A program made the position numbers and the translations under genes. 64,000 bases of DNA from IMG/VR virus record IMGVR_UViG_3300045988_118131. One strand, 5' to 3'. Below are positions 2,552 through 62,296 of this stretch, one piece after another. The DNA is from a virus. Each line of letters starts with the position of its first letter. The first letter of the stretch is position 1. The notes under the pieces are model-generated. The model did not search any database, had not been told where the DNA came from, and saw nothing but the letters and a program-made list of their open reading frames with translations.

Positions 2552-2800
2552 ATGGGATAAATGAGCGTGGTTCCACTATCATTCTCTCTCCACCTCCAGA
2601 AATTTTTTCCATTTCCCCAATTCTCCGAGAAAGAGCACTTTTAGCATTTCAATTTTGAAAACTCTACTCAACATATCTGAACTTGTTTTAGAGCTAAATT
2701 TGAGTTTTCACAAAAGTCTCTTTCCAAAATATATATTTTCTAAGCCCATACAATCTTAAATTTAAGTTTATATATAACAAACAAAAAGACAGCCTAGGAG

Positions 2801-2875
2801 TCTATAAAATATACACTGATGAGACTAGGACGAAACTATCCTCAATTGAGGGTAGTCTGTTTGAACTTTTTTTAC
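2801..2875 (+). ncRNA. hammerhead-ribozyme-like motif (type I topology), predicted cut after C2857
   Basis: CUGAUGA (2816-2822), then 9 nt, then GAA (2832-2834). A 7-bp stem III follows (2835-2841 with 2850-2856, opening A-U pair), then GUC. Stems I and II are weak. Confidence 0.3.
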
Positions 2876-8914: not shown

Positions 8915-8985
8915 TGTCCTATGGTGTAATGGTAGCACAACAGATTTTGGTTCTGTCGGTCTAGGTTCGAATCCTAGTAGGACAA
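8915..8985 (+). tRNA. tRNA-Gln (anticodon TTG)
   Basis: 7-bp acceptor tgtccta/taggaca, T arm ctagg-ttcgaat-cctag, anticodon stem acaga/tctgt, loop ttTTGgt. Confidence 0.8.
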
Positions 8986-9159
8986 CTCATGTAAAGCAGT
9001 AGTACGACATTTAGGCATCGTACCTTATAATCCAAGAGTCGGTAAAGTCAGCTGAATAAATCCGATGAGGTATATCTATAGAATAAATGCCATAGCTAGC
9101 AACAAGATAACTATAGGAACTGAAATCTTCAGTGTAGAAATACTGCTTTACAACCTTAT

Positions 9160-9236
9160 AGGGACATATCCCCTCTGCCTTATACGCTGTTGAAAGGGTA
9201 ATTGGTCACATGTGGGTTCAAGCCCCACTGTCCCTA
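9160..9236 (+). ncRNA. tRNA-like element (acceptor + T arm, no foldable D/anticodon arms)
   Basis: agggaca/tgtccct acceptor, gtggg-ttcaagc-cccac T arm, tRNA-sized at 77 nt; the internal 43 nt do not form a cloverleaf by eye. Confidence 0.4.
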
Positions 9237-9255
9237 CTATAAGCAGGATTATAAA

Positions 9256-9340
9256 GCCTGGATGGTGGAATTGGTAGACACTTCAGATTTAAGCTCTGAT
9301 GCCCATTGCGGGCGTGTGGGTTCGAGTCCCACTCCAGGTA
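9256..9340 (+). tRNA. tRNA-Leu (anticodon TAA)
   Basis: Type II tRNA; anticodon stem tcaga/tctga, loop ttTAAgc; long variable arm; T arm gtggg-ttcgagt-cccac. Confidence 0.85.
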
Positions 9341-9379
9341 CATACTTAATCAATTAATTATTAATTAAATTAAATTAAA

Positions 9380-10459
9380 ATGAAGAAAGTATTATTGATG
9401 TTTATTGCTCTTATGAGTGTTGTGTGTTTGAGTGCACAAGAGTTGAGAATGCCAAAGTACAAGTTTACTGACAACTGGTCAATCAGTGTGGGTGGAGGAA
9501 TTATGTCCTCGTTTGGAGATAAACAAAGTTCTTTTGAACATAAAGATTTCTCCAATCCGTCTGTACATTTAGGATTAAACAAGTATTTTACTCCAGTAGC
9601 AGGAGCTAGATTTCAAGGAGAGTGGAAGAAGTTTAATACTGAATTAGAAGATGTCCATACAGCAGGAGTGTATAGTGATTTGTTAATCAACCCAATTAAC
9701 ATTTTCAATTCAAATTACGATAGAAAATTTAATGTAGTAATTCCAATTGGCGTAGGTTATTTACATTCATTTAAAAATGATCAAAGTGCAAAACAAGACT
9801 TCCTGATTCCCAGAGTTGGACTTCAACTTAATTATGATATTACAGACGCAGTACAATTAAATCTAGAGGGAATAGCTTCATTGTCGCATGACAAACTAGA
9901 CTTCATTGTAAATAAAGCACAGTATGACGGGTTTATTACTACCTCTTTAGGAATTACCTATAAATTTAAGAACCATAATGGAAGTCGAGGATTTAAGTAT
10001 ATTCCATCTTATGACCAGGAAGATATTGACTTTTTAAATGAGGAAATTAACAGAATTAAGGCAGAATGTGAGAAAACTCCGAAAACAATTACTGTAGTTG
10101 ATACTATTCACGTAAAAGATACTGTATTTGTTAGAGAAGTTTCTCCAACTACTATTAGATTCCATATTAATTCTGCTGAAATAGCTCCTGAACAAATGGC
10201 TAATGTTAGAAACATAGCTGATCATGTTAAGGACAATGCTATTAAAAAGTTAGTAGTTACTGGTTATGCTGATGCCAAAACTGGAACTCCAGAATATAAT
10301 CAGAAACTCAGTGAGAAGAGAGCAGAATCTGTTAAAAGAGCATTAATTAGTTTTGGAGTGCCTGAAGATAGACTGATTGTAGGAGCTGAGGGAGATAAAG
10401 TTCAGCAGTATGAGAACAATGATTGGAATCGAGCTACAATTATAGTCTCTCAAAACTAA
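9380..10459 (+). CDS. OmpA-family outer-membrane protein (signal peptide, beta-rich N domain, C-terminal OmpA/peptidoglycan-binding domain)
   Basis: MKKVLLMFIALMSVVCLSAQ signal; C-terminal VTGYADAKTGTPEYNQKLSEKRAESVKRAL..GVPEDRL matches the OmpA-like domain consensus. Confidence 0.75.
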   Translation: MKKVLLMFIALMSVVCLSAQELRMPKYKFTDNWSISVGGGIMSSFGDKQSSFEHKDFSNPSVHLGLNKYFTPVAGARFQGEWKKFNTELEDVHTAGVYSDLLINPINIFNSNYDRKFNVVIPIGVGYLHSFKNDQSAKQDFLIPRVGLQLNYDITDAVQLNLEGIASLSHDKLDFIVNKAQYDGFITTSLGITYKFKNHNGSRGFKYIPSYDQEDIDFLNEEINRIKAECEKTPKTITVVDTIHVKDTVFVREVSPTTIRFHINSAEIAPEQMANVRNIADHVKDNAIKKLVVTGYADAKTGTPEYNQKLSEKRAESVKRALISFGVPEDRLIVGAEGDKVQQYENNDWNRATIIVSQN

Positions 10460-10465
10460 ATCCAG

Positions 10466-10515
10466 ACCATTTAAAAGGAATATCCAAATTGATTCGAAGT
10501 TCTCTTTTAAATGGT
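10466..10515. repeat. long-hairpin repeat, copy 4
   Basis: accatttaaaagga...tctcttttaaatggt. Confidence 0.7.
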
Positions 10516-10535
10516 TAAACTCAAAAATCTCTATT

Positions 10536-10823
10536 ATGTCCAAAAGTAAAAAACTTCCTATCTACAAGGATAGAGGAATTGCACAACATAGCACTTTCAG
10601 AAGAAAAATAAAAAGAAGAATAAGACAAAAAGTCAAAGAGTTATTAACTCTACTGGATATAGAATCTTATGAACTTCCCTCTCCGAAAGTTTTGGTAAAT
10701 GACTATGATTGGTGTGATTATATCTTTGATTTTAGATTTAAGAGCCAAAGTAGATATATAAGAGATACAGAAGAGTATGATAAATATATGGAAGAATCGC
10801 AAATTAGATATTCTAGAAAATAG
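10536..10823 (+). CDS. small basic protein (95 aa)
   Basis: ATG ORF; RRKIKRRIRQKVK tract. Confidence 0.6.
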   Translation: MSKSKKLPIYKDRGIAQHSTFRRKIKRRIRQKVKELLTLLDIESYELPSPKVLVNDYDWCDYIFDFRFKSQSRYIRDTEEYDKYMEESQIRYSRK

Positions 10824-10844
10824 AATCTAATCTTTTTAGATTCT
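10822..10844 (+). terminator. hairpin agaatctaa-tcttt-ttagattct
   Basis: Perfect 9-bp stem overlapping the stop codon, T-rich tail. Confidence 0.6.
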
Positions 10845-11004
10845 TTATATTTAAAGAGTGACTAAATAAAAGAACTCCTTTATATAAGGACAACTTTTGC
10901 CAACCTAGTGAGGTTTTATCCTAGTGTCACCACTCTTGATGAGTAGAGGATAGATCTTTATGGCAACATAAAGTTAACAACCTCCTCCAAATAGAGGAGG
11001 ATTT

Positions 11005-11077
11005 CGAGTAATGATGTTCAATGGTAGCATGATAGCTTTGGGAGCTATTCGAGCCAGTTCGAGTCTGGCTTACTCGA
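11005..11077 (+). tRNA. tRNA-Pro (anticodon TGG), copy 1
   Basis: Acceptor cgagtaa/ttactcg, anticodon stem atagc/gctat, loop ttTGGga, T arm gccag-ttcgagt-ctggc. Confidence 0.8.
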
Positions 11078-11330
11078 CGAGCAGAAGTAACAGTATAGTG
11101 TAGAGTTGCATAATTGCCTTAAACAAGTAATAGGTGGGAGCGTAACGAACTTCTACTGTAGAACTTCATCCTGTTTCGACATTTTCAGTCTAAATGCTGG
11201 GTGGTTACTTCCCAATTAAATAGTAGACCGTGTCTAGCTACGTTATCAACTAGTCGTGTTGTACGGTTAGAACAGCTCCTTCTAGGGTAATCAGACGTTC
11301 CGCATGGTGTTCGATAAAATCATGCAATAT

Positions 11331-11413
11331 CGCGAGGTAGTGTAAAGGTAACATCCTAGGCTCATAACCTAGAGAAGCGAAGAGTGTTGCAGGTTCGAGT
11401 CCTGCCCTCGCAA
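11331..11413 (+). tRNA. initiator-type tRNA-fMet (anticodon CAT) with 16-nt variable region
   Basis: 5' CGCGAGG and 3' CCTCGCAA give a C1-A72 mismatch as in bacterial tRNAfMet; loop CTCATAA; variable region agaagcgaagagtgtt instead of about 5 nt. Confidence 0.6.
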
Positions 11414-11476
11414 CAAGGGTCAATCGGAAGATTGATTCTACAAGTTGTAAATAAACCGGTCAATGTTTATGACTTG

Positions 11477-11552
11477 TGCGGAATGGAGAAGTGGTCTATC
11501 TCGCTGGGGCACATATGCTCAGAGGCCAGAGGTTCGAATCCTCTTTCCGCAA
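11477..11552 (+). tRNA. tRNA with CAU centred in a 9-nt anticodon loop (Met/Ile2-like)
   Basis: Good acceptor tgcggaa/ttccgca, D arm gaga/tctc, T arm agagg-ttcgaat-cctct; anticodon stem ctggg/ctcag encloses gcaCATatg. Confidence 0.5.
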
Positions 11553-11610
11553 CAAACTCCTTTTGTGGCTCCCAATAAATTAATTATTAACAATTTAAAA
11601 TTTTTTAAGT

Positions 11611-11730
11611 ATGAAAAAAGTAATTAATGTTGTAAAGAAAGCTGCTGAGTGGTATTTTGAACAGAGTTCCAAAAGCTATGTATGGTTAGTTTCAGGAACT
11701 ATTCCTCCGCCTAACAAAGGTTTGGAGTGA
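11611..11730 (+). CDS. small hypothetical protein (39 aa)
   Basis: ATG ORF MKKVINVVKKAAEWYFEQ...; between tRNAs. Confidence 0.3.
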   Translation: MKKVINVVKKAAEWYFEQSSKSYVWLVSGTIPPPNKGLE

Positions 11731-11767
11731 ATATACTACTAATGTTAGAAATGTAAACACTAAAAAT

Positions 11768-11845
11768 ATGAAAGATAACAGATTTAAATTAATTTCCATA
11801 ATATTTGGAATTATTTTATTTATTGTGTTGATGATTCAATGGTAA
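11768..11845 (+). CDS. small hydrophobic peptide (25 aa)
   Basis: MKDNRFKLISIIFGIILFIVLMIQW; single TM-like segment. Confidence 0.3.
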   Translation: MKDNRFKLISIIFGIILFIVLMIQW

Positions 11846-11904
11846 TTTCCTCAATGGGGGAAATAGGTAGACCCACTGGTAAGAATTTTACATGATAATT
11901 AAAT

Positions 11905-11992
11905 ACCCTCTTGTTGGAACTGGTAGACATCCATGATTTAGGCTCATGGGCGAAGTAACAGTAGCGTGAGAGTTCGAATCTCTCAGAGGGTA
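11905..11992 (+). tRNA. tRNA-Leu (anticodon TAG)
   Basis: Acceptor accctct/agagggt; anticodon stem catga/tcatg, loop ttTAGgc; long variable arm; T arm gagag-ttcgaat-ctctc. Confidence 0.85.
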
Positions 11993-11994
11993 CT

Positions 11995-12180
11995 ATGCGT
12001 AGAACAGACATTTTAGAACGTAAAGAAGACATCCTTAAATGGATAGGAGAAGATTTACCAAATGCAGAGATTGCTAGAAGACTAGCCTGTAAAGTAGATA
12101 CTTTAAAGTCTTATTACACTAAGATGGGAATAACATACTCAGGTAATCAAATTATTTGTTTAATTCTAAAAATAAATTAA
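11995..12180 (+). pseudogene. N-terminal fragment of an HTH-HNH homing endonuclease (61 aa)
   Basis: ILKWIGEDLPNAEIARRLACKVDTLKSYYTKMGITYSGNQ resembles the HTH...GNQG N-terminal module of phage HNH endonucleases; the nuclease domain is absent. Confidence 0.4.
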
Positions 12181-12181
12181 G

Positions 12182-12451
12182 ATGAAAGTAGTACTAAGTA
12201 CAGTATTAGATTTCGAATCCTTAGAGGACATAGTAGCTGCTTGTGCAGATTGTATTGAAAATAGTGATTTAACATCTCTTGACGATGGAGTTCCAGAGGA
12301 TTGGGATCTGCCCGAAGTTTGGAATGAAGAAGTGGTTAAAGACTTCTTAAAATTCAATGGTTCTATATTTGCTAGATGTCAAGGAATTGATTTGGAGACA
12401 GATCTTTTTGACGATAATTTTAGTGAAACAAGAGTAGAAATAGAAGAGTAA
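12182..12451 (+). CDS. acidic hypothetical protein (89 aa)
   Basis: ATG ORF from track. Confidence 0.6.
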   Translation: MKVVLSTVLDFESLEDIVAACADCIENSDLTSLDDGVPEDWDLPEVWNEEVVKDFLKFNGSIFARCQGIDLETDLFDDNFSETRVEIEE

Positions 12452-12645
12452 TGATAGGACTTATTTTGTTTGTAGTATGGGTAGTTTCCGTGGTAGGTGC
12501 AGTATCATATTATGCACGGGAAACCATGGATCCCACCGCACCTAGAGTAGTAATAGCTTTTTTCCCTATAGTAAATACTTTATTCTGTTTAAGAAAAAGG
12601 TTGTTTAGTAATGTATTCAATGACATAGTTAAAGAATTTAAATAA
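12451..12645 (+). CDS. small membrane protein (64 aa)
   Basis: Hydrophobic N-terminus LILFVVWVVSVVGAV; start/stop overlaps on both sides. Confidence 0.55.
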   Translation: MIGLILFVVWVVSVVGAVSYYARETMDPTAPRVVIAFFPIVNTLFCLRKRLFSNVFNDIVKEFK

Positions 12646-13202
12646 TGCCGAGTTATCAAATTACGATTAATGCTCCAGAGGGTAAAATTCCAGTTTACAA
12701 CGAAAGTACTCAAAGTATTGATTTTGTAGACTCTGACATTAGAGAAAAAGTTAAAACCTACGAGGATGCACTTAAAGTCTTGGGAGAAGAAAGACCATCC
12801 TATGTTGATGACATGCCCAAACATCTAGCTGCAAGAATCAAATGTGAGACTATATTGAGAGCATTGAATGGGGATCACAAATTCCATCTTACGGAGGGTG
12901 CTTGGTATTATCCTTGGTTAAAAATATATCTAGAATCTAGTACTCCTAAAGAGTATAAGATAGAAAGTAATCCTCTATTTCTTTATGAAGGTAAAAAATA
13001 CTGGCTGCGCTCTGGTAATTTTGCCTATGTTCCTGGCGGCGTCGCTTATTTCGATGCTGTTAATGGTTCTGGCGATTCTTCTACCTATGTCGGCTTCGCT
13101 TGCCGGAGTAGAGAGATAGCGGACTATTTTAGTGAGCAATTCAAAAAGCTCTATTTCGATGCTATCTACGGAGGCATATTAGAGTATAAATGGTGTAATT
13201 AA
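12645..13202 (+). CDS. hypothetical protein (185 aa)
   Basis: ATG ORF from track. Confidence 0.65.
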   Translation: MPSYQITINAPEGKIPVYNESTQSIDFVDSDIREKVKTYEDALKVLGEERPSYVDDMPKHLAARIKCETILRALNGDHKFHLTEGAWYYPWLKIYLESSTPKEYKIESNPLFLYEGKKYWLRSGNFAYVPGGVAYFDAVNGSGDSSTYVGFACRSREIADYFSEQFKKLYFDAIYGGILEYKWCN

Positions 13203-13218
13203 ACAAAAAAAACAAAAT

Positions 13219-14118
13219 ATGAAAAAGTGTAATGAAGTATTTTTCAGTGATAAAGGTATGACTAGTACAAGTGCGAATCATTTAGCTAACATTGCCGCTG
13301 AAGTGGTTCAAGCTCGTAAACTGGAGTTAGAAAACGTTACGTTTATTAGCGAATATATTTCTGTACTAGGCACTAACAGAGAAAAGGTTCTTGTTGTAGA
13401 AGGTAATAGTGCAGAGGATATAACTAGGATAAAAGAATCTCTTAAATTTATTTCCGAAGCCAATTCATTTATCGCTTGGGTTAGAGAAGCTATAAAGGCT
13501 AAAGAAGAAGAGCTTAATGAAATATCAAACATCTCTTTAGAAGATTATTGCAACCTAATGAAAGTTGAAGTTCCTCTATTGCCTAGCAGGATGCAAGAAG
13601 TCACCGAAGAAGACATTTTGGGAACTTGGAATATTAAAGAGAGAAATGAGTATTACTCGTTGGAAGCCTACTCAGCTGCTATCGGTAAATTTATTCACCC
13701 AAATGGAGCTTTTTCTAAAGCTCGTAAGCAGTTACAGGCTAAGCTAACTAGACCTCATAGTGTAGATAAGAGTTCTTCTTCCAACATAGTAATCTATGAC
13801 TATATTCCCTCAGTAGAGCTATCTACAGTTGAAGATTCGTTTCTTGAGATGCAGAATACGCATAGAGCTTTGACTGCTAGGCTAAATCAGTTGAAATTTA
13901 GATTGAAGACTGAGGCGGCAGAGTTAACTAGGAAAAGACATGATGAATGGCACATGCTTGCAGATGAAATGAATTCTAGAAGACAAAAACTATATTCAGA
14001 CTTAATTACTTATAAAAATTCTGAAACTCAGAAAATAAGTCAACTGAAAATAGTTATTCCAGAGGCACTTAAAGAAGTGTTTGATTTTCTTCAGAATATC
14101 CAAAATGCAAAGAAATAA
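13219..14118 (+). CDS. hypothetical protein (299 aa)
   Basis: ATG ORF from track. Confidence 0.7.
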   Translation: MKKCNEVFFSDKGMTSTSANHLANIAAEVVQARKLELENVTFISEYISVLGTNREKVLVVEGNSAEDITRIKESLKFISEANSFIAWVREAIKAKEEELNEISNISLEDYCNLMKVEVPLLPSRMQEVTEEDILGTWNIKERNEYYSLEAYSAAIGKFIHPNGAFSKARKQLQAKLTRPHSVDKSSSSNIVIYDYIPSVELSTVEDSFLEMQNTHRALTARLNQLKFRLKTEAAELTRKRHDEWHMLADEMNSRRQKLYSDLITYKNSETQKISQLKIVIPEALKEVFDFLQNIQNAKK

Positions 14119-14163
14119 AGGTGAATAGGACTTAATCCTCATTGGGATTTAACCATTCTTTGT

Positions 14164-14353
14164 GTGAGTAAAGAAATATACCAATAATTTATTAAATAAA
14201 GAATATAATCTTAATTTGTCAATCTGACAAATGTTTAAATTACTGACAGTTCGCAGAAATATATTAAATTTCTGTCTTGGTTTTTGGCTTCGCTTTGCGA
14301 ACTGGTCTTTGCTTTCGATTTAGTTCTTGGCATAATTATATTTCTTTACTCAC
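14164..14353. repeat. 190-nt element bounded by a perfect 17-bp inverted repeat (structured RNA or MITE-like)
   Basis: gtgagtaaagaaatata (14164-14180) is the exact reverse complement of tatatttctttactcac (14337-14353); internal hairpins ttgtca/tgacaa and cagttcgca/tgcgaactg. Confidence 0.7.
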
Positions 14354-14362
14354 GACTTAAAT

Positions 14363-14435
14363 GTCCCTATCGTCTAGTGGTTTAGGACAAAGCACTTTCG
14401 ATGCTTAAACACGAGTTCGAGTCTCGTTGGGGATA
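14363..14435 (+). tRNA. tRNA-Glu (anticodon TTC)
   Basis: Body similar to bacterial tRNA-Glu (GTCCC..TCGTCTAG..GGAC); anticodon stem aagca/tgctt, loop ctTTCga. Confidence 0.8.
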
Positions 14436-14471
14436 CTAAAAATAAAATTTTTGTAAAAATTTTATCAGATA

Positions 14472-14503
14472 TTTGGCTAGTAAAAATAAAAGTAGTATCT
14501 TTG
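14472..14503 (+). promoter_or_regulatory. Bacteroidota-type promoter TTTG-N20-TAtcTTTG
   Basis: TTTG 14472-14475, TAtcTTTG 14496-14503; precedes a tRNA cluster. Confidence 0.65.
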
Positions 14504-14514
14504 TATCACTATTT

Positions 14515-14568
14515 CGAAGGTATAGTGTAAAGGTAGCATAACTCACTGTCTATGAGCCATACTTTCGG
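14515..14568 (+). ncRNA. T-arm-less tRNA-Asp-like element (anticodon GTC), 54 nt
   Basis: Acceptor cgaaggt/actttcg (7 bp); D arm near-identical to the fMet tRNA (tagtgtaaaggtagcat); anticodon stem-loop actca-ctGTCta-tgagc; only 3 nt where the variable and T arms should be. Confidence 0.4.
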
Positions 14569-14576
14569 CAAAATAT

Positions 14577-14650
14577 TGGGTAATGGGAAAGTTGATTAAT
14601 CCGCTGCATTTGGGATGCAGAGATCGCCAGTTTGAGTCTGACTTACCCAA
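14577..14650 (+). tRNA. tRNA-Pro (anticodon TGG), copy 2
   Basis: Acceptor tgggtaa/ttaccca; anticodon stem ctgca/tgcag, loop ttTGGga; T arm gccag-tttgagt-ctgac with one mismatch. Confidence 0.65.
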
Positions 14651-14656
14651 CTATTT

Positions 14657-14731
14657 AGAGGATTAGCTCAGTTGGTTCAGAGCACTTGATTTACATTCAA
14701 GGGGTCATGAGTTCGAATCTCATATCCTCTA
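14657..14731 (+). tRNA. tRNA-Val (anticodon TAC)
   Basis: Canonical cloverleaf: agaggat/atcctct, gctc..gagc, cttga-ttTACat-tcaag, atgag-ttcgaat-ctcat. Confidence 0.9.
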
Positions 14732-14751
14732 CTCAAATTAATTAAAAATAG

Positions 14752-15051
14752 ATGATTATGGATTATTTAATTTTAGGTATTTGTATTTTAATTTGTATTT
14801 TAGTGGTGTTCCTTCTAGTAGCATTGATGTTTTGTAACTACATGATAGATAGGAACGATCTAGTTTATAATTTTCGTATGACAGTGTTTACAGAAAATCC
14901 TGACATGTACGAAAAGTTACCATCCTATGATACTATGATGTCCTATTTCTGGATTTCGTTGTGTGATTTAGATAACTGGATAGACTTTAAATACCCAGAA
15001 TGTGGAGGAATCTTTCAAGCTATTAGAAATTATATCAACTATAAAAACTAA
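14752..15051 (+). CDS. membrane protein (99 aa)
   Basis: N-terminal TM segment LILGICILICILVVFLLVALMF. Confidence 0.55.
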   Translation: MIMDYLILGICILICILVVFLLVALMFCNYMIDRNDLVYNFRMTVFTENPDMYEKLPSYDTMMSYFWISLCDLDNWIDFKYPECGGIFQAIRNYINYKN

Positions 15052-15055
15052 TAAA

Positions 15056-15283
15056 ATGACAATATTAACTTTCTATAGTATTGGAGTATTAATCTCAATA
15101 ATATTCCTTGCGATTTTATCCTATATTGCTATCTACAAAGGTAGAGATTTAACCTTAAGAGTATTGATCTCAATAATATTGTATAGTTTAGCATCTTGGT
15201 TTTGCATATTTTCTATTATTGTTATTTTAGTTATAAATTGCTTATCGAAGTTTGATACAATATTAATAAAAGGTAGAAAATAA
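15056..15283 (+). CDS. membrane protein (75 aa)
   Basis: In-frame ATG after the preceding stop; two hydrophobic segments. Confidence 0.5.
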   Translation: MTILTFYSIGVLISIIFLAILSYIAIYKGRDLTLRVLISIILYSLASWFCIFSIIVILVINCLSKFDTILIKGRK

Positions 15284-15290
15284 TAAAGTT

Positions 15291-15368
15291 GGCTCGCTAG
15301 CTCAATAGGATTAGAGCAACAGCCTTCTAAGCTGTAGGTTCTGCGTTCGAATCGCAGGCGAGTCACCA
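15291..15368 (+). tRNA. tRNA-Arg (anticodon TCT), CCA encoded
   Basis: ggctcgc/gcgagtc, gctc..gagc, acagc-ctTCTaa-gctgt, ctgcg-ttcgaat-cgcag, then ACCA. Confidence 0.9.
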
Positions 15369-15385
15369 TTTAAAAGGAATATTAT

Positions 15386-15724
15386 ATGAGAATTACTTCA
15401 GAAGAATATACTCAACTAATTAATAAGTTGAAAAATTTAAAATCTTCATATTTAGATTCTCCGCTCCAATTTGGAAAATATAAAGGGAGAACTTTAAGAT
15501 GGATAAAATCTTATGATTTGCAATACATATATTGGTTAGCTGATAATACAGATTTCCCTATAGATTTAAATCTTCTTGATTTGCCAGAAAATAATACTTT
15601 TAAGCAAAATATTAGTAAAGAAATTTCTGCTGATATAGAAGATACCTTTATAAGGGACTGTCGCATAGAAAGAGAGCAATCTCAAATTGAAGCCTACAGA
15701 AGAGAACACGGTCATGGCTGGTAA
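15386..15724 (+). CDS. hypothetical protein, DUF3820-like motif (112 aa)
   Basis: FGKYKGRTLRWIKSYDLQYIYWL resembles the FGKYKG...YLxWL motif. Confidence 0.45.
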   Translation: MRITSEEYTQLINKLKNLKSSYLDSPLQFGKYKGRTLRWIKSYDLQYIYWLADNTDFPIDLNLLDLPENNTFKQNISKEISADIEDTFIRDCRIEREQSQIEAYRREHGHGW

Positions 15725-15861
15725 AATATTTCCTTCTACGCCTCTCTAAATTTGGATATTGATGCGCACCGAGAGGAGGAGTTCTTTCCTATCAACGACC
15801 AAAGTAGGAGATAGGTTGAGATACTGCTAATATAGTCGGCTATTAGTATGGATCTCGTAAT

Positions 15862-15933
15862 GGAGGAGTAGCTCAATGGTAGAGCGCAGGTTTGAAGAAC
15901 CTGGCGTTGGGGGTTCAATTCCCTCCTTCTCCA
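15862..15933 (+). tRNA. tRNA-Phe (anticodon GAA)
   Basis: ggaggag/cttctcc, gctc..gagc, caggt-ttGAAga-acctg, ggggg-ttcaatt-ccctc. Confidence 0.85.
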
Positions 15934-15940
15934 CAATTTA

Positions 15941-16013
15941 GCGGGATTGGTGTTAATGGTTAGCATACGACTCTTCCAAAGTCAAGGAGACAGTTCGAGT
16001 CTGTTATCCCGCA
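15941..16013 (+). tRNA. tRNA-Gly (anticodon TCC)
   Basis: gcgggat/atcccgc; anticodon loop ctTCCaa; T arm gacag-ttcgagt-ctgtt. Confidence 0.8.
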
Positions 16014-16037
16014 CAAGTCTATAAAACTACTTGAAGT

Positions 16038-16385
16038 ATGAGAAATCTAGAGGAATTAGTAAAAGATAATATAGAATTTATAAATTCTATGAGTTGTGAA
16101 AAGTGGATTGAATTATTAAAGTCTATAGCTATATCAATATTACCTTTTTATGGTAGTGATAAAAATATAGAAGCAATAAAAAACATCAAATGTATTTCTA
16201 TTCACTATAATGAGCATGGACTAAGTGAGATTCAATTGACAACTAGTAAGCTAGATTATGAGGATTTTGAAATAAAATTAAATAATGTAGGAATAAAAAT
16301 ATCTCAACAAAGAGGACATTCTAATTTTGAAGAATATTGCTTCATTCCAATTGAAGCATTTAGAATAGTAAATAAGGAAGTATAA
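16038..16385 (+). CDS. hypothetical protein (115 aa)
   Basis: ATG ORF; the last 10 nt overlap the next tRNA. Confidence 0.6.
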   Translation: MRNLEELVKDNIEFINSMSCEKWIELLKSIAISILPFYGSDKNIEAIKNIKCISIHYNEHGLSEIQLTTSKLDYEDFEIKLNNVGIKISQQRGHSNFEEYCFIPIEAFRIVNKEV

Positions 16386-16467
16386 GCCTAATTGGTAAGG
16401 CAGTAGTCTTGAAAACTACTAGTAATCGTGTAAAAGCGGTGTGCCAGTTCGAGTCTGGCTGCTTCCT
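16376..16467 (+). tRNA. tRNA-Ser (anticodon TGA, reads UCA)
   Basis: Type II; ggaagta/tgcttcc, gtagt-ctTGAaa-actac, long variable arm, gccag-ttcgagt-ctggc. Confidence 0.8.
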
Positions 16468-16483
16468 CTATAAATTTTATATC

Positions 16484-16750
16484 ATGAGTAGAAGTTTTCA
16501 TCAAAGACATCGAGATTCTCACCATAATAAAAGTCCTAGAGAGATTTTGGCTATAGAAAAAAGAAATGGAGTGAATCGTATCATTTGGAGAAATAGGAAA
16601 ATTAAACCCTATGGTAGAAAAGATTTCATTGGATATGGGGAAGAAACATATCTTAAAAAATATGGGGAGTATTTTGCTCCTGTAATTGACAAGAAACGAG
16701 AAAGAAGAAGGGCAAAACAACAAATTCTTATAGAATTAAGTTTTGACTAA
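16484..16750 (+). CDS. small basic protein (88 aa)
   Basis: First ATG downstream of the tRNA within track ORF 16409..16750; Arg/Lys/His-rich. Confidence 0.55.
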   Translation: MSRSFHQRHRDSHHNKSPREILAIEKRNGVNRIIWRNRKIKPYGRKDFIGYGEETYLKKYGEYFAPVIDKKRERRRAKQQILIELSFD

Positions 16751-16754
16751 ACTT

Positions 16755-16826
16755 GTCGGGTTGACCGAGTGGCTTAGGTACTGGTCTGCAAAACCAGGTA
16801 CAGCGGTTCGAATCCGCTACCCGATT
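16755..16826 (+). tRNA. tRNA-Cys (anticodon GCA)
   Basis: gtcgggt/acccgat, ctggt-ctGCAaa-accag, agcgg-ttcgaat-ccgct. Confidence 0.8.
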
Positions 16827-16839
16827 CTAATAAAAACAT

Positions 16840-16911
16840 ACGTCGGTGGCATGATTGGGAAGCAACGGTCTCCAAAACCGTGATATGAAGGTTCGAATCC
16901 TTCACGGCGTG
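16840..16911 (+). tRNA. tRNA-Trp (anticodon CCA)
   Basis: acggt-ctCCAaa-accgt, gaagg-ttcgaat-ccttc; acceptor has one mismatch, weak D stem. Confidence 0.65.
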
Positions 16912-16927
16912 CTACAATTATAAATAA

Positions 16928-16999
16928 GGGCCGGTAGCATAATTGGGAATGCGCTAGTTTTGCACACTGGAAGATCGGGTTCGAGTCCCGCCGTGTCCA
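16928..16999 (+). tRNA. tRNA-Ala (anticodon TGC)
   Basis: G3-U70 pair, D arm gcat..atgc, ctagt-ttTGCac-actgg; two acceptor mismatches and one T-stem mismatch. Confidence 0.55.
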
Positions 17000-17008
17000 C
17001 AACTTTTT

Positions 17009-17093
17009 GGAGAGATGGCTGAGTGGTCTAAAGCACTGCACTGCTAACGCAGCGAGGGTAACACCTCCGTTGGTTCGAATCCAACTCTCTCCG
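17009..17093 (+). tRNA. tRNA-Ser (anticodon GCT)
   Basis: Type II; ggagaga/tctctcc, loop ctGCTaa, long variable arm, gttgg-ttcgaat-ccaac. Confidence 0.8.
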
Positions 17094-17114
17094 CAATCTA
17101 ATTTACTATATTAT

Positions 17115-17444
17115 ATGAATAGAGCAGAGAGAAGAAAACTTAAAGAGTTAAAGTTTAAGAAACGTCTTAAATTTTGGGCAAATTTAAAGTATCCAGTAAA
17201 AGAAAATAGTGAATGGAGGGCAGCAAAGTCTTGGACAGAGCTTAAAGATCATCATGAATTTAGAGACCAGTCTACTGGATATAAACGCAATGATAAAGAA
17301 TACAATCAGAAGCGTGTAAGAAAGATGGCATTTAAACTAGCTCAAAATGAATTGGAAGACATTAACTATTTCTTAGAAGATGATTTTTATTCATATTATA
17401 AAGTAAATATGAAAGCAAGAACTAATAAGAAGACTTGGAGATAG
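17115..17444 (+). CDS. small basic protein (109 aa)
   Basis: First ATG after the tRNA in track ORF 17007..17444; RAERRKLKELKFKKRLK. Confidence 0.55.
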   Translation: MNRAERRKLKELKFKKRLKFWANLKYPVKENSEWRAAKSWTELKDHHEFRDQSTGYKRNDKEYNQKRVRKMAFKLAQNELEDINYFLEDDFYSYYKVNMKARTNKKTWR

Positions 17445-17486
17445 TCTTCTTTTAAATGGTTAAACTTGAAAATTAATAGAATTAAA

Positions 17487-17580
17487 GGAAGGGTAACGGC
17501 AGCAGACTGTAAATCTGCCCTGCTTTAACAAATTGTCGTATCGGAATCGCAGTAGGTGGGTTCGAGTCCCACCCCTTCCA
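17487..17580 (+). tRNA. tRNA-Tyr-like (anticodon GTA) lacking a D arm, with about 37-nt variable region
   Basis: ggaaggg/cccttcc, gcaga-ctGTAaa-tctgc, gtggg-ttcgagt-cccac. Only 8 nt lie between the acceptor and anticodon stems, and 37 nt between the anticodon stem and the T arm. Confidence 0.45.
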
Positions 17581-17622
17581 CATAATACAGAAATATTCAT
17601 CTCAACACACATTTGGTTTATT

Positions 17623-17799
17623 ATGGAAGAGAAATTAGACTTAATTATTCAAAAATTGGATGAGTTACTTGTATTAACCAAACGTATTCACCGAGATACA
17701 GAACCATCTATTGAAAATAATACATCTGAATATTTATTAAATGTGTTAGGTGATGTTACTGGTGACGTTATAATGCAAGGTTTAACTGGAAGTAGATAG
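17623..17799 (+). CDS. small hypothetical protein (58 aa)
   Basis: First ATG after the tRNA in track ORF 17533..17799. Confidence 0.45.
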   Translation: MEEKLDLIIQKLDELLVLTKRIHRDTEPSIENNTSEYLLNVLGDVTGDVIMQGLTGSR

Positions 17800-17805
17800 T
17801 AGAAC

Positions 17806-18342
17806 GGGCTTGCCTGGTTTTGACAGGTAATTACAAATTATAAGGACGTGTAGAGTTTGTACCAACTCTTTAAAAATGATACACAATTTTAAGTGGCAAC
17901 ACTGAAGTAAGAATGGCAGCGTAAGCTGTGGCTTGTCAATAAGTATATTGATTAAAGTCGGGTTAACGGAGAAGACCTAGAAACAGAAGAGGTGTGGGAA
18001 GAAGCGTATAAAGCAGCCCACTTAACTTGAACGCCAAAGGTTAGTAGAGCTGAGATTCTCCACAATGTGTATGGTAGAGACGCAAGGGCTATGCCTAAAA
18101 GTACTACTCGTTCTCCAACGTAAATGGAGTGGTGGAAAGCTGACTTCGGTCAGCCCATAGTTTGATAGTTTGTTGTATAGTTAAGCGGAAAGGTGCTAGA
18201 TGAGTCCGCTTGCAAAGAATCTAGCTCTTCTATGAAAACTATCTAAATGCTAGAACTCACTAGCTGATGTAATAAAAATGAGACACACGTTATCCTTGTA
18301 ATAAGGATTGTCTGGACGGCGGTTCGATTCCGCCCAAGTCCA
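17806..18342 (+). ncRNA. ssrA: tmRNA (SsrA), about 537 nt; predicted tag (A)GNTEVRMAA
   Basis: 5' GGGCTTGCCTGGTTTTGACAGG; 3' GGCGG-TTCGATT-CCGCC then CAAGTCCA. These form a 7-bp acceptor with a G3-U70 pair. Internal frame GGC AAC ACT GAA GTA AGA ATG GCA GCG TAA at 17895..17924. Confidence 0.75.
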
Positions 18343-18380
18343 CTTAACATCAGATTAAAAATAAGATAAACAAATAAGTT

Positions 18381-18914
18381 ATGGAATCTAGATTATTGCC
18401 CAATTACAAGACTGTAGGAAATGAAGAAATAAGTTATCCTACTTATTCTAAATTAAGTGCTTTTATGATAGAACGTGAGACTAACTATATTTCATCTATT
18501 GTAGATGTGTTAATAAAGAAAGTCCCTCAAAATAAACCAATAAAATTTCTAGTTAGAGGAATGTCTATGGCTATCCTAACTGGAAGTGTGGCATATCATT
18601 TAAGATGTAAAGGTAGGGCATGTAAAATTGATATTTTAAGAAAAAAGGGAGATGATTCTCATATGGGTGTACACTTTGAGGACAATGAGTCGTATATAGT
18701 CGATCCTGACTATGTTTATGTTGTAGTTGACGACCTAGTAGCTTCTGGAGACACCGTCCGAAAACTTGGAAGTCTGGTAAAGTTCAATTATCGCAAAAGA
18801 AAATTGGATTTTCTCTTTGTTTCTTCTATTTATTGTAGGGGAGAGTCTGAAGTAAAGTATTGGTCTAAGTATTATAAATATGTGTATAGTAATCGTATAA
18901 TAGAAACTAAATAG
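18381..18914 (+). CDS. phosphoribosyltransferase-like protein (177 aa)
   Basis: VYVVVDDLVASGDTVRKL matches the PRPP-binding motif of type I PRTases. Confidence 0.45.
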   Translation: MESRLLPNYKTVGNEEISYPTYSKLSAFMIERETNYISSIVDVLIKKVPQNKPIKFLVRGMSMAILTGSVAYHLRCKGRACKIDILRKKGDDSHMGVHFEDNESYIVDPDYVYVVVDDLVASGDTVRKLGSLVKFNYRKRKLDFLFVSSIYCRGESEVKYWSKYYKYVYSNRIIETK

Positions 18915-18925
18915 TTTCCAGTGTG

Positions 18926-18999
18926 GATCTTGTAGCTCAGTTGGTTAGAGCTCGATACTTTTAATATCGGGGTCGACAGTTCGAATCTGTCCGAGATCA
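18926..18999 (+). tRNA. tRNA-Lys (anticodon TTT)
   Basis: gatcttg/cgagatc, gctc..gagc, cgata-ctTTTaa-tatcg, gacag-ttcgaat-ctgtc. Confidence 0.9.
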
Positions 19000-19051
19000 C
19001 ATAATCAAGATAAACATTGGGTATCATCCCAATATCATATGTGTGTTAGTG

Positions 19052-29484: not shown

Positions 29485-29557
29485 TCTTAGGTAGCTTCAA
29501 TTGGTTAAAGCCCTGGATTTTACTAGGAGATTGTGGGTTCGAATCCCACCCTAAGAA
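29485..29557 (+). tRNA. tRNA with non-standard anticodon loop (AUUUUA; 6-nt loop, or 8-nt if the closing pair opens)
   Basis: tcttagg/cctaaga, gctt..aagc, gtggg-ttcgaat-cccac are all good; the only consistent anticodon stem cctgg/ctagg leaves loop atttta and no nt 26. Confidence 0.5.
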
Positions 29558-29578
29558 CAAATAATTAAAAACAAAAAA

Positions 29579-58389: not shown

Positions 58390-58619
58390 TTAGGAAAAAC
58401 CCGAAAGAAACAAGCCCAAAGGAGCCTATCAAAACTGTACCTGTTTTAGAAATAGAAGATATAGAGTATGTAGAAATAGAAAGCAATTTATATGCTTATG
58501 TTGCGTATAACGCAAATGGACCACTATATATTTCTACTAATATTGAGTCTATAAAAGAATACTCTAAGAGAACTAAAGCTAAAGATGTTAAGTATAAGAA
58601 AATTAAATTTAAACTATGA
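58386..58619 (+). CDS. hypothetical protein (77 aa)
   Basis: ATG ORF from track. Confidence 0.5.
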   Translation: MIRKNPKETSPKEPIKTVPVLEIEDIEYVEIESNLYAYVAYNANGPLYISTNIESIKEYSKRTKAKDVKYKKIKFKL

Positions 58620-59821
58620 ACCAAGACTATTTAATATCTAAGGATAGTAAAGGAAAAATAAGAGTAGTAAACATATCTTATGATTGGGATAAAGACTTAA
58701 ATGGATATGTTATTAGAAGATTTACAAGTCAGTATGGAGGAAAGATTACTACTCAACCTATAATTCTTGTAGATAAAGGTAAAGGAATTGGAAAAGCCAG
58801 AAGAACAGTATCAGAACAAGCTAAATTAGAGTACGATTCTAGGGTAAATAAATATATGGATAAGGGATATAAAAAACTCCCTAAATCCATAGATTTGTAT
58901 ACAAAGGAGGAGTTAGACGCTTTGTTACCGGAAGAAACTACTGACTCTGAGGGAAACTTAAAACCTATGCTAGCAAAGGACTTTCACGATGTAGCTACAT
59001 CTGTCTTAGAAAAACAATGGTGGTATGCTAGTAGAAAAATTGACGGAGTTAGGTGTTTAATGTTTGTAAAAGACGGAGAAATACATACTTCTTCAAGAGG
59101 AGGTAAAAATTATGATGCCTCAACATATCATATTACTTGTAATCCTGAACTTAAGAGATTTATGTTGGATAATCCGACACTCATTTTAGATGGTGAATTA
59201 TATATTCACGGATATTCTTTACAGACATTAAGTGGATTAGCTAGACTAAAGAAGGAAACAGACAAATGTGACGAGCTTCAATATTATATATATGATATAG
59301 TAGATACTAGTAAAACATTTGAAGAGCGTCTTGAGGTTCTTGACCATATAAAGGATGAACTCCAACTTGATTTTGATCCTAATAAAACATTTGAAAATGG
59401 AGATTTACAAATTCAAATGGTTCCTCATATTAAAGTAGAAGGCTGGGTTCAAATAAAGAAAATTCATGATTCCTATGTAAAAGAAGGATTTGAAGGAGCA
59501 GTTATAAGACGTCCGGACAAAAAGTATGGAGTCAATAAACGAACCAATGATATGGTTAAGGTAAAAGAGTATCAAGATGGAGAATTTAAAATTATTGGAT
59601 TCTCTGAAGGGCTCAGACCAGAAGATATGGTATTCGTCTGTGTAACTGAAGATGGAAAAGAGTTTGAAGCAAAGCCTATTGGTCCTAGAGAGTTGAAGCA
59701 TGAATATTTAGAAAGAATGAGTGAGATTGTTGGTAAAATGGCAACTGTAAAATACTTCAGTTTTTCTGACGGAGGAACTCCGACACAACCAGTACTAAAA
59801 TGTATAAGGGATTATGAGTAA
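58616..59821 (+). CDS. ATP-dependent DNA ligase
   Basis: Motif I SRKIDGVR, LDGEL, EGAVIRRPD, VKVK. Confidence 0.8.
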   Translation: MNQDYLISKDSKGKIRVVNISYDWDKDLNGYVIRRFTSQYGGKITTQPIILVDKGKGIGKARRTVSEQAKLEYDSRVNKYMDKGYKKLPKSIDLYTKEELDALLPEETTDSEGNLKPMLAKDFHDVATSVLEKQWWYASRKIDGVRCLMFVKDGEIHTSSRGGKNYDASTYHITCNPELKRFMLDNPTLILDGELYIHGYSLQTLSGLARLKKETDKCDELQYYIYDIVDTSKTFEERLEVLDHIKDELQLDFDPNKTFENGDLQIQMVPHIKVEGWVQIKKIHDSYVKEGFEGAVIRRPDKKYGVNKRTNDMVKVKEYQDGEFKIIGFSEGLRPEDMVFVCVTEDGKEFEAKPIGPRELKHEYLERMSEIVGKMATVKYFSFSDGGTPTQPVLKCIRDYE

Positions 59822-60934: not shown

Positions 60935-62296
60935 ATGAATATTTCAAGAAGCGACAAATTCAATCAAAATTATGCTTGTAAAATTGTTGAATTAAATGAG
61001 TTCAGACCCCATTGTAATCCAGAAGTGACTAGGTTAAAAGTCGCCAGAGTAGATGGATTTGACATTATAGTCGGAATTGATACGGAGAAAGGGCTATATA
61101 TTTATTTTCCTGTAGGATGCGCAATAGATCCAGAGTTTTTAAAATTAAATAATTTGTTTAGAGACAAAGATAAGAACTCTGACCCAGAAGCAAAACCTGG
61201 ATTCTTTGAAGATAATGGACGAGTAAAAGCAATTATGCTTAGAAAGGAGAAAAGTCAAGGATTTATTATTCCTATATCATCTTTAAATGGTTACATATCA
61301 AGCAGTTTAGAAATACAGAAAAGTGATATTGGAGTAGACTTCGACGTTATTGATGGTAAGCAAATTTGTAAGAAGTATATCGTTAAAATAGCAAGAACTC
61401 CTGGAGCTCCTGGAAGTGCTAAATCTAGAAAAGGTAAAACTCCAACTATTGACTTAGTGGAAGATCAGTTTAGATTCCATGTTGATACAATTCTCTTAAG
61501 AAAAGTTCCAAATGTAATTAAACCAGACTCTTTAATTAGTATTACTTCTAAATGGCATGGAACTAGTGGTATTTCAGCTAATTTGTTACAGAAAATTCCT
61601 ATTAAAGAAAATTTCTTTAAAAAGATTAGTAGAAAGTGGTTTACTAACAATCCTGAACCATATAAAGAAGAATATCGAGACTTATGTTCTTCTAGAACTG
61701 TAATTAAATGTCCTGGAGTGGGAGGCGGATATTATGGGGTAGATATTTGGAATATTGCTCATGAAGTTATTAAACCTCATCTATCAAAGGGTTTAACAGT
61801 ATATTACGAAATTGTAGGGTTTCTTCCAACTGGAGGATATATTCAGAAAGGGTATGATTATGGATATGTTCCTCCAAAATCAGGAGAATCTTTCGAGTAT
61901 GGAAAGCACTTCGGTATTAGAGTGTATCGCGTAACCTATACCAACGTGTCTGGCTCAGTCTTTGAATTTTCAGCTAGACAAGTACAACAATGGTGTGAGA
62001 GAAATTCATTAGATCCAGTGATTCAGTTATACTATGGATATGCTAAAGATTTATATCCTAGTCTAGATCCTGCTAATCATTGGAATGAGAACTTTATTGA
62101 GGCTCTAGCTAATGATAAAAGGTTCTATATGGAATTAGACAGCCCTGATTGTATTAACAATGTGCCACACGAAGGAATTGTAGTGCGAAACGAAACTTTA
62201 AACATTGATGTCTATAAACTCAAATGCTTTAGATTCTTGAAAAAGGAAGATGAAGCTATGGACAGGGGTGAGGTAGACATAGAAACTGAATCATAA
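60935..62296 (+). CDS. RNA ligase (Rnl2-like nucleotidyltransferase)
   Basis: Motif I TSKWHGTSG (KxHGT), YYEIVG, EGIVVR, YKLK; a distinct DNA ligase is already present at 58616. Confidence 0.6.
   Translation: MNISRSDKFNQNYACKIVELNEFRPHCNPEVTRLKVARVDGFDIIVGIDTEKGLYIYFPVGCAIDPEFLKLNNLFRDKDKNSDPEAKPGFFEDNGRVKAIMLRKEKSQGFIIPISSLNGYISSSLEIQKSDIGVDFDVIDGKQICKKYIVKIARTPGAPGSAKSRKGKTPTIDLVEDQFRFHVDTILLRKVPNVIKPDSLISITSKWHGTSGISANLLQKIPIKENFFKKISRKWFTNNPEPYKEEYRDLCSSRTVIKCPGVGGGYYGVDIWNIAHEVIKPHLSKGLTVYYEIVGFLPTGGYIQKGYDYGYVPPKSGESFEYGKHFGIRVYRVTYTNVSGSVFEFSARQVQQWCERNSLDPVIQLYYGYAKDLYPSLDPANHWNENFIEALANDKRFYMELDSPDCINNVPHEGIVVRNETLNIDVYKLKCFRFLKKEDEAMDRGEVDIETES

Follow-up and report, generated by a model that had tools for sequence, protein, structure and literature searches.

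Introduction

This paper deals with a stretch of viral DNA of 64,000 nucleotides (IMG/VR record IMGVR_UViG_3300045988_118131, hereafter the window) and with a gene for a transfer-messenger RNA (tmRNA) that it carries at positions 17806..18342 on the plus strand (+). The usual length of tmRNAs is 350-400 nucleotides (nt). The window is phage DNA with a guanine + cytosine (G + C) content of 32.6%, nearly all of its genes lie on the plus strand, and the genome from which it comes is that of a phage of about 185 kb from the human gut. The region 17806-18342 is a real, complete and phage-encoded tmRNA gene in one piece, 537 nt long up to the discriminator A and with its elements in the standard order. 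It contains about 200 nt of conserved extra sequence, the insert, at the place of the second pseudoknot (PK2) of standard tmRNAs. We consider it probable, at about 0.75, that this gene specifies the functional, standard-order tmRNA of a lineage of AT-rich human-gut phages of about 185 kb, in which the insert is an integral elaboration of PK2.

Phage tmRNAs are already known. Huge phages encode them (PMC7162821), about 2.3% of cultured phage genomes carry a tmRNA, and the tmRNA of phage Melnitz is a two-piece molecule (PMC9004378). The role proposed for the reported phage tmRNAs is to keep the hijacked translation machinery running, and the present gene is like them in that a phage ssrA gene is found together with tRNAs and other translation-related genes (PMC7162821, PMC9004378). 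Unlike these reported phage tmRNAs, it is one-piece and has a large extra domain and a tag end, RMAA, common to the whole family. What is new here is the family-wide RMAA end of the tag, the conserved 200-nt expansion of PK2 and the near-invisibility of the family to the standard detector.

The Gene and Its Canonical Parts

The Rfam covariance model for tmRNA, RF00023, matches 17806-18345 (+) with 82.1 bits (gathering score, 47; E, 2.6e-30), and the match spans model positions 1-374 of 374. The initial annotation of the window, made from the letters alone, had taken the two ends of the region for the tRNA-like domain of SsrA, and both of the parts on which it relied are present. The acceptor stem consists of 7 bp, in which GGGCUUG (17806..17812, +) pairs with CAAGUCC (18335-18341) and which include G3·U70, the alanine identity pair. 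The T arm, GGCGG-UUCGAUU-CCGCC (18318..18334, +), is contiguous with an intact T loop, and the 3' strand of the acceptor stem follows it to 18341. The discriminator A is at 18342, and the gene does not encode CCA.

Between these ends the elements of a standard bacterial tmRNA come one after another. The 5' strand of the long helix H2 (17824..17851, +) pairs with 18285-18314 in three helix segments and is followed by the pseudoknot PK1 (AGAGU/ACUCU plus UGUA/UACA, 17852..17883, +), which the tmRNA model aligns with its own PK1 hairpin. The resume codon comes after a UA(A/G)NU motif, and the tag of nine amino acids ends in Ala-Ala, with its stop codon inside the loop of helix H5 (GCAGC-GUAA-GCUGU, 17916..17929, +). 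Next are hairpin Ha (GGCUU..AAGUC enclosing UCAAUA/UAUUGA, 17930..17959, +), the insert, and two downstream pseudoknots, namely a PK3-like unit (18164..18243, +), in which a closing helix GAUAGUUU/AAACUAUC surrounds an H-type pseudoknot, and PK4 (GCUAG/CUAGC plus CUCA/UGAG, 18249..18282, +). The inner stems of the PK3-like unit, as read from the sequence, are AAGCGGA (18183-89)/UCCGCUU (18205-11) and GCUAGAU (18195-201)/AUCUAGC (18219-25).

Unlike standard tmRNAs, the members of the phage family are 515-596 nt long, carry a conserved expansion of about 200 nt in place of PK2, have a tag that ends in RMAA instead of the usual ALAA-type end, are phage-encoded and have no encoded CCA. The PK2 of RF00023 does not align here and a larger pseudoknot with nested hairpins apparently stands in its place; about 237 nt on the 3' side of the tag are left unaligned by the model and are the source of the 537-nt length. 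The RNA had been noted earlier as longer than typical, at about 537 nt. This length is real; what had been overlooked is its cause, the conserved structured insert at PK2, which no other feature of the gene equals in strangeness. The model for permuted two-piece tmRNA, RF04321, gave a partial match of 23.8 bits, below the cut-off of 47, and the gene order is the standard one.

Homologs and Covariation

Four pattern scans of IMG/VR, two of them with patterns from the insert, one from PK4 and one from the tag/H5 region, gave about 120 loci when combined, and nearly all of these are whole-gene homologs as judged by BLAST and inspection. They come mostly from human-gut samples and lie on contigs of 93-270 kb, many of which are 180-190 kb. 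Alignment A3 holds 54 distinct full-length homologs of 515-596 nt. When the proposed structure is laid on A3, 91.2% of the cells are paired, as against 33-47% after a shift of the 3' partners by 1-3 columns. In addition, 33 pairs change on both sides, and the observed covariation is reached by no shuffle. An automatic helix search on the alignment was unusable because of noise from G·U-rich matches, and RNAalifold on the global alignment was unreliable where indels were many.

The acceptor stem is paired in 100% of the 54 sequences with compensatory changes at 2 pairs, and G3·U70 is invariant in 54/54. The T stem is likewise paired throughout (100%) and has 3 compensatory pairs; in the H2 segments pairing amounts to 98-100%, and both sides have changed at 7 pairs; and H5 is 100% paired, with one compensatory change. 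Stem 2 of PK1 changes from GUA/UAC to GCA/UGC in two homologs (L093 and L048). The outer stem of hairpin Ha is 94% paired, and its inner stem has a clade-dependent sequence in which complementarity is kept. The closing helix of the PK3-like unit is 98% paired, with A-U, G·U and G-C alternating at one pair, and the interior of the unit is hypervariable between clades. Stem 1 of PK4 is 91.6% paired with 2 compensatory pairs, and stem 2 is 88% paired. PK1, the PK3-like unit and PK4 are drawable with partial covariation; in the pseudoknot at the PK2 site one stem is well supported and the other by wobble changes only. The covariation indicates that the canonical parts of this tmRNA are under structural selection.

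These data also bear on the idea that the region is a non-functional, decaying or captured copy of a host ssrA gene, such as a remnant of integration at the host tmRNA gene. Fragments of ssrA are frequent in prophages, for which this gene is an integration site (PMC9004378), and a few of the present relatives (L112, L116 and L123) have internal deletions. However, the gene is full length and not a 3' fragment, and more than 100 contigs conserve it with compensatory changes and a protected tag frame. Furthermore, a scan of 185,579 species genomes (596 Gb) with a 19-mer gave 8 matches, which is about the calculated chance level, and only 2 of the 8 are tmRNA homologs (L040, which scores 69.9 bits with RF00023, and L041), both on contigs of metagenome-assembled genomes (MAGs) and one with a tRNA array. 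A host copy is thus extremely improbable.

The tmRNA genes in the alignments (A2 and A3) are mosaic. In one of them (L022) the 5' part and the tag are those of one clade (that of L018) and the middle is that of another (that of L016), and the PK3 types are shuffled among the clades. This suggests frequent recombination between co-infecting relatives.

The Tag Reading Frame

The tag frame at 17895..17924 (+) reads GGC AAC ACU GAA GUA AGA AUG GCA GCG UAA, that is, the resume codon GGC, the peptide GNTEVRMAA and the stop codon UAA. Across about 100 loci 16 different in-frame tag peptides occur, all of them 9-11 amino acids long and all starting with Ala or Gly immediately 3' of UA(A/G)NU. The most frequent is GNTEVRMAA (26 loci, the window included), followed by AEIAPVRMAA (20 loci), ATYSEVRMAA (15), AERSDYRMAA and AERSDVRMAA (8 each), GNTTYRMAA (7) and GETEGYLRMAA (5); nine other variants are present at 1-3 loci each. 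All the variants but one end in RMAA, and the exception ends in RMVA. The differences in tag length are multiples of 3 nt, and synonymous changes occur (GGA/GGC, GAC/GAU and GCG/GCC/GCU). Because of the in-frame lengths, the synonymous changes and the conserved RMAA, the pattern is that of a translated frame, and it indicates strong purifying selection on the ...RMAA end of the tag.

The initial annotation had read the internal frame as GNTEVRMAA and had called its end non-canonical. The frame is there, and the related loci agree with it, as does ARAGORN, which calls GNTEVRMAA once 17960-18158 has been deleted in silico and lists it as "Tag not identified". As for the unusual end, it is shared across the roughly 100 related loci, so that RMAA is a family-wide trait and not a quirk of a single sequence. 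In the supplements of PMC11915505, taken as text, neither the tmRNA sequence nor the tag was found. Three homologs (L031, L024 and L081) have UGA instead of UAA as the tag stop (GCG UGA), and these are also the shortest versions, 515 nt.

Through the universal RMAA end, phage-driven tagging could be detected directly in gut samples by proteomics, and the reading of phage and host tags by the host proteases ClpXP, Lon or Tsp could be compared.

The Insert at the PK2 Position

The insert of about 200 nt, 17960-18158 (+), lies between hairpin Ha (17930-59) and the PK3-like unit (18164-18243). It is found in every relative, including the relatives that were fetched by patterns outside it, and its probable layout is an H-type pseudoknot whose loops contain nested hairpins, with three further hairpins on the 3' side. 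In the first part (17960..18061, +), which is the pseudoknot, stem a is GGGUUAA (17960-66)/UUAACUU (18022-28) and is 95.5% paired, and stem x is GGAGA (17968-72)/UCUCC (18057-61), for which GGAAGG/CCUUCC is found in L118 and GGAAGG/CCUUUC in L124. The two stems interleave in the order a5'-x5'-a3'-x3' and would therefore make an H-type pseudoknot at the usual site of PK2. Hairpin a1 (ACCU-AGAAACAGAAG-AGGU, 17975-93) is nearly invariant, so it is a putative pairing. Hairpin V1 (17994-18021) varies in length and sequence, is always complementary and covaries. Hairpin P(c) (GCC-AAA-GGU, 18033-41) is elsewhere CUC-UAA-GAG or CUC-AGU-GAG.

The second part (18062..18158, +) comprises the variable region V2 (18062-18108), hairpin C (CUCCA-ACGUAAA-UGGAG, 18113-29), which covaries to CUUCA/UGAAG and CCUAU/GUAGG, the block GUGGUGG and hairpin V3. 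The last is built of UGG (18133-35)/CCA (18155-57) and GCUGAC (18139-44)/GUCAGC (18149-54) with a UUCG loop, and in L031 it is UAGAG..GACC/GGUC..CUCUA. Four unpaired blocks of the insert are near-invariant, namely AGAAACAGAAG, GUUAGUARAGCUGA, ACGUAAA and GUGGUGG, whereas the interior of PK3 and V2 are only about 50-55% conserved, a contrast that is partly due to the conserved patterns used for fetching. The near-invariance of these unpaired stretches suggests a tertiary fold or a bound partner.

It is in the region from PK2 to PK4 that tmRNA is plastic, replacements being tolerated there. In cyanobacteria tandem small pseudoknots replace PK4, and in other lineages hairpins replace pseudoknots. 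The phage family is like these tmRNAs in that the PK2-PK4 region is changed and an H-type pseudoknot probably still sits at the PK2 site. It is unlike them in the larger scale of the change (about 200 nt and six extra hairpins) and in that its unpaired blocks are near-invariant across clades despite the hypervariable PK3 next to them. The expansion is a well-sampled and covariation-rich new RNA domain suited to structural and biochemical work.

Two further candidates within the insert were rejected. A small open reading frame (ORF) at 18065-18160 is not conserved, and the length of V2 differs between clades by non-multiples of 3. A long-range pairing between the tag codons AGAAUG and CGUUCU (18109-14) is broken in L090, which has CGUUAU. 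In addition, the loop of hairpin a1, UAGAAACAG, has a possible likeness to the loop of 23S rRNA H43, and some blocks presumably resemble conserved regions of RNase P RNA; both likenesses are without Rfam support and are given as leads only. In the three relatives with internal deletions (L112, L116 and L123) the deletions are within the insert, for example the loss of GACCUAG between repeated AGAAAC, and L123 is also without the 3' half; these may be decaying copies or assembly errors.

Detection of the Family

ARAGORN finds 19 tRNA genes in the window and no tmRNA. The natural gene is not called; a tmRNA is called after in-silico removal of 17960-18158. Of the distinct homologs ARAGORN misses 51/54 and calls only the three shortest (515 nt), each with a spurious tag located inside the insert. 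The reported phage tmRNAs, on the other hand, were all found with this program. Phage tmRNA surveys and standard phage annotation pipelines rely on ARAGORN, and therefore the insert-bearing family is very likely absent from the published counts of phage tmRNAs. Whole phage lineages can thus escape ARAGORN-based counting: more than 100 large human-gut phage contigs are uncalled or wrongly tagged.

Intron and Ribozyme Readings of the Insert

The tmRNA introns described to date are all group I introns, and all of them are in the TψC loop (PMC11915505). The phage tmRNA is like the intron form in that the gene exceeds 500 nt and has about 200 or more extra bases in comparison with a standard tmRNA. 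It is unlike the intron form in that the T loop is uninterrupted, that the additional sequence is placed between H5 and the last two pseudoknots, and that there is neither a group I match nor the core pairings. The interruption of the T loop by a group I intron is accordingly not seen here, the T arm being contiguous at 18318-18334.

The insert might nevertheless be an intervening sequence outside the T loop, either a divergent intron of the group I type or an element that cleaves itself, in which case the mature tmRNA would be about 340 nt long or would be cut into two pieces. The idea is worth testing because the authors of PMC11915505 say that introns at other sites may have been missed. 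In the same work a 500-bp limit and a bit-score cut-off excluded all non-intron sequences, and the present gene is longer than 500 nt. Moreover, the RNA without 17960-18158 is accepted by ARAGORN as an ordinary tmRNA, and the insert looks ribozyme-like, since it has a pseudoknot and conserved single-stranded blocks between variable hairpins. One stretch, GCCAAAGGUUAGUAGAGCUGA, is loosely like the P6-J6/7-P7 region of group I introns when compared by eye with an intron alignment.

However, a permissive Rfam search of 17700-18450 (751 nt) gave no match of the insert to any family at E<=10, neither to the group I intron family RF00028 nor to any ribozyme family (hammerhead, twister, pistol, hatchet, hepatitis delta virus (HDV)-like and hairpin ribozymes included). 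The same library is able to find such elements. Genuine group I introns in other fetched loci score 41-76 bits with it, and it detects a RAGATH-1 hammerhead ribozyme elsewhere in the window. This ribozyme, at 2786-2862 (+) upstream of the tRNA array, is full length and scores 88.4 bits against a cut-off of 56.3.

The supported helices do not fit the group I order P3-P4/5/6-P7-P3'-P8-P7' either. There is no conserved partner for P7, the sole candidate, UCAGC in V3, being missing from the L031 and L102 clades, and no U·G pair is conserved at the 5' splice site, the wobble of hairpin Ha being in the wrong orientation. A group I intron in the insert was therefore rejected as a candidate, being without an RF00028 match and with covarying helices that cannot be threaded onto the P3-P9 scheme. 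Furthermore, no insert-less relatives are present among those fetched, and the insert was never found outside tmRNA genes in the scans. In view of the intact T loop, the lack of an Rfam match, the helix order, the missing P7 partner and the universal presence, the insert is treated as an integral expansion. An intervening sequence of either kind is very unlikely, and the insert is most likely a lineage-specific elaboration of PK2 and not an intron. If no intron is present, the genes of 515-596 nt extend the known size range of intron-less tmRNAs.

A possible link between the insert and group I introns was also dropped. The block GACCUAGAAACAGAAGAGG(UG), 19-21 nt, of hairpin a1 is found as well in the P2 loop of a group I intron (L075, L082, L086 and L099). 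The 19-mer occurs in only 2 independent non-tmRNA contexts, and a control scan with the reversed 19-mer, which has the same composition, gave 3 matches in the same collection. The shared block may therefore be due to chance and is not used as evidence. The intron itself (L086, 2354-2702; 76 bits) interrupts, at its 3' end, the gene for a major head protein (phrog_11589) on a gut phage contig, and L082, L099 and L075 carry the same head-gene intron together with extra inserted sequence that reads like a coding region.

Function and Its Alternatives

The proposed trans-translation pathway is modelled on established tmRNA biology and on the conserved anatomy of the gene. The tmRNA would be part of the transcript of the phage tRNA array, would undergo tRNA-like trimming and would then receive its CCA, since this is not gene-encoded. 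The host alanyl-tRNA synthetase (AlaRS) would charge the molecule with alanine through G3·U70, and SmpB, presumably that of the host, would bring it to stalled ribosomes. After the template switch the ribosome would resume at GGC 17895, add (A)GNTEVRMAA and stop at UAA 17922. The ribosome would then be freed, and the protein would carry a C-terminal hydrophobic-Ala-Ala end of the kind known to ClpXP-type proteases.

Several points weigh against this functional reading with an integral insert. Stem a of the insert pseudoknot varies only from G-C to G·U, and, when folded thermodynamically, the insert does not surpass shuffled sequence (z = -0.43). The use of conserved patterns to collect the homologs inflates the conservation figures. 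At 537 nt the gene exceeds the 500-bp limit of PMC11915505, which raises the prior for an intervening sequence. The RMAA tag end, with Arg at -4, is unusual and absent from the ARAGORN tag list, and recognition of this end by proteases is assumed. Finally, the SmpB family was not found among the 29 ORFs of the 64-kb window that were scanned with Pfam.

The last point would also suit a different role, in which the phage tmRNA is mainly a decoy or inhibitor. By competing for the SmpB, the AlaRS or the stalled ribosomes of the host it would blunt host trans-translation or the protease load, and the expansion would soak up a protein of the host or the phage. A tmRNA-like RNA of mycobacteriophage DS6A that is without a coding sequence (CDS) reportedly inhibits endogenous tmRNA, as cited in PMC11915505, and the highly conserved unpaired blocks of the insert would suit a binding platform. 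The tag frame is open, however, encodes 9-11 amino acids with the RMAA end and shows synonymous changes over 16 variants, which argues that it is translated, and the full set of tmRNA elements is kept. A decoy is for these reasons unlikely.

To return to a functional tmRNA with an integral insert, our best guess is a scaffold role for the insert, which would stabilise the phage tmRNA or distinguish it from the host tmRNA. A bolder and rather doubtful possibility is that the insert is a new functional RNA module grafted into the tmRNA, which together with the RMAA tag would make a private channel of ribosome rescue and degradation. Such a module might, for example, serve as a platform that binds a protein of the ribosome or of the phage, or it might mimic another RNA; it might also be a ribozyme or intervening sequence that has gone unrecognised at a new tmRNA site. 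If this were true, the phage tmRNA would have gained a function that bacterial tmRNAs lack.

Genome Setting

The tmRNA gene lies inside a tRNA array at 8915-19000, with a tRNA-Ser gene (17009-17094) upstream and a tRNA-Lys gene (18926-19000) downstream, so that the earlier description of a phage tmRNA beside a tRNA array is correct. Immediately before it is a tRNA-Tyr(GUA)-like gene (17487-17580, +), which scored 33.8 bits in a local Rfam search. In this gene the variable arm is long and the D-arm region much shortened, and it was missed both by ARAGORN and by the Rfam pass over the whole window. An ORF at 17533-17799 overlaps it, and the 5' end of that ORF is probably spurious. Directly downstream of the tmRNA gene, an ORF at 18381-18914 (+) specifies a protein of 177 amino acids that has no Pfam or PHROG match and contains VVVDDLVASGDT, which resembles the phosphoribosyltransferase motif for binding phosphoribosyl pyrophosphate (PRPP).

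Among the other proteins of the window are a Dda-like helicase, ribonucleotide reductase, an exonuclease, RNase H, dUTPase and a glucosaminidase. An ATP-dependent DNA ligase (58616-59821, +) and an RNA ligase (phrog_968, 60935-62296, +) are also present; the latter shares the window with the tRNA array and the tmRNA and could serve in the repair of cleaved tRNAs.

In the GenBank phage collection the only relatives are two unannotated human faecal contigs. Several hints point to a host in the Bacteroidota: a DUF6383 C-terminal domain and an OmpA-family protein in the window, the similarity of the tRNAs to those of IAS virus and phage cr126_1, which we take to be crAss-like phages, and a homolog whose contig is binned with a Muribaculaceae MAG. 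Another tmRNA homolog, on the contrary, is binned with a Clostridium MAG, which runs counter to a single assignment to the Bacteroidota.

The initial annotation had further supposed that the tmRNA might be connected with the recoding of a stop codon. This link did not hold up in the window: when TAG or TGA is read as sense, the cover by ORFs barely changes and the longest ORF stays the same. The long plus-strand ORFs end with TAA in 35 cases, TGA in 5 and TAG in 3, and ARAGORN called no suppressor tRNA in the window. One tRNA-like gene at 29485-29558 (+) was reported by ARAGORN as "tRNA-???" with the anticodon "tt" and scores 42.9 bits with the Rfam tRNA model. Its anticodon stem can be drawn as CCUG/UAGG with a loop of 8 nt (GAUUUUAC) or as CCUGG/CUAGG with a loop of 6 nt, not 7, and it could be a frameshift-type or a defective tRNA.

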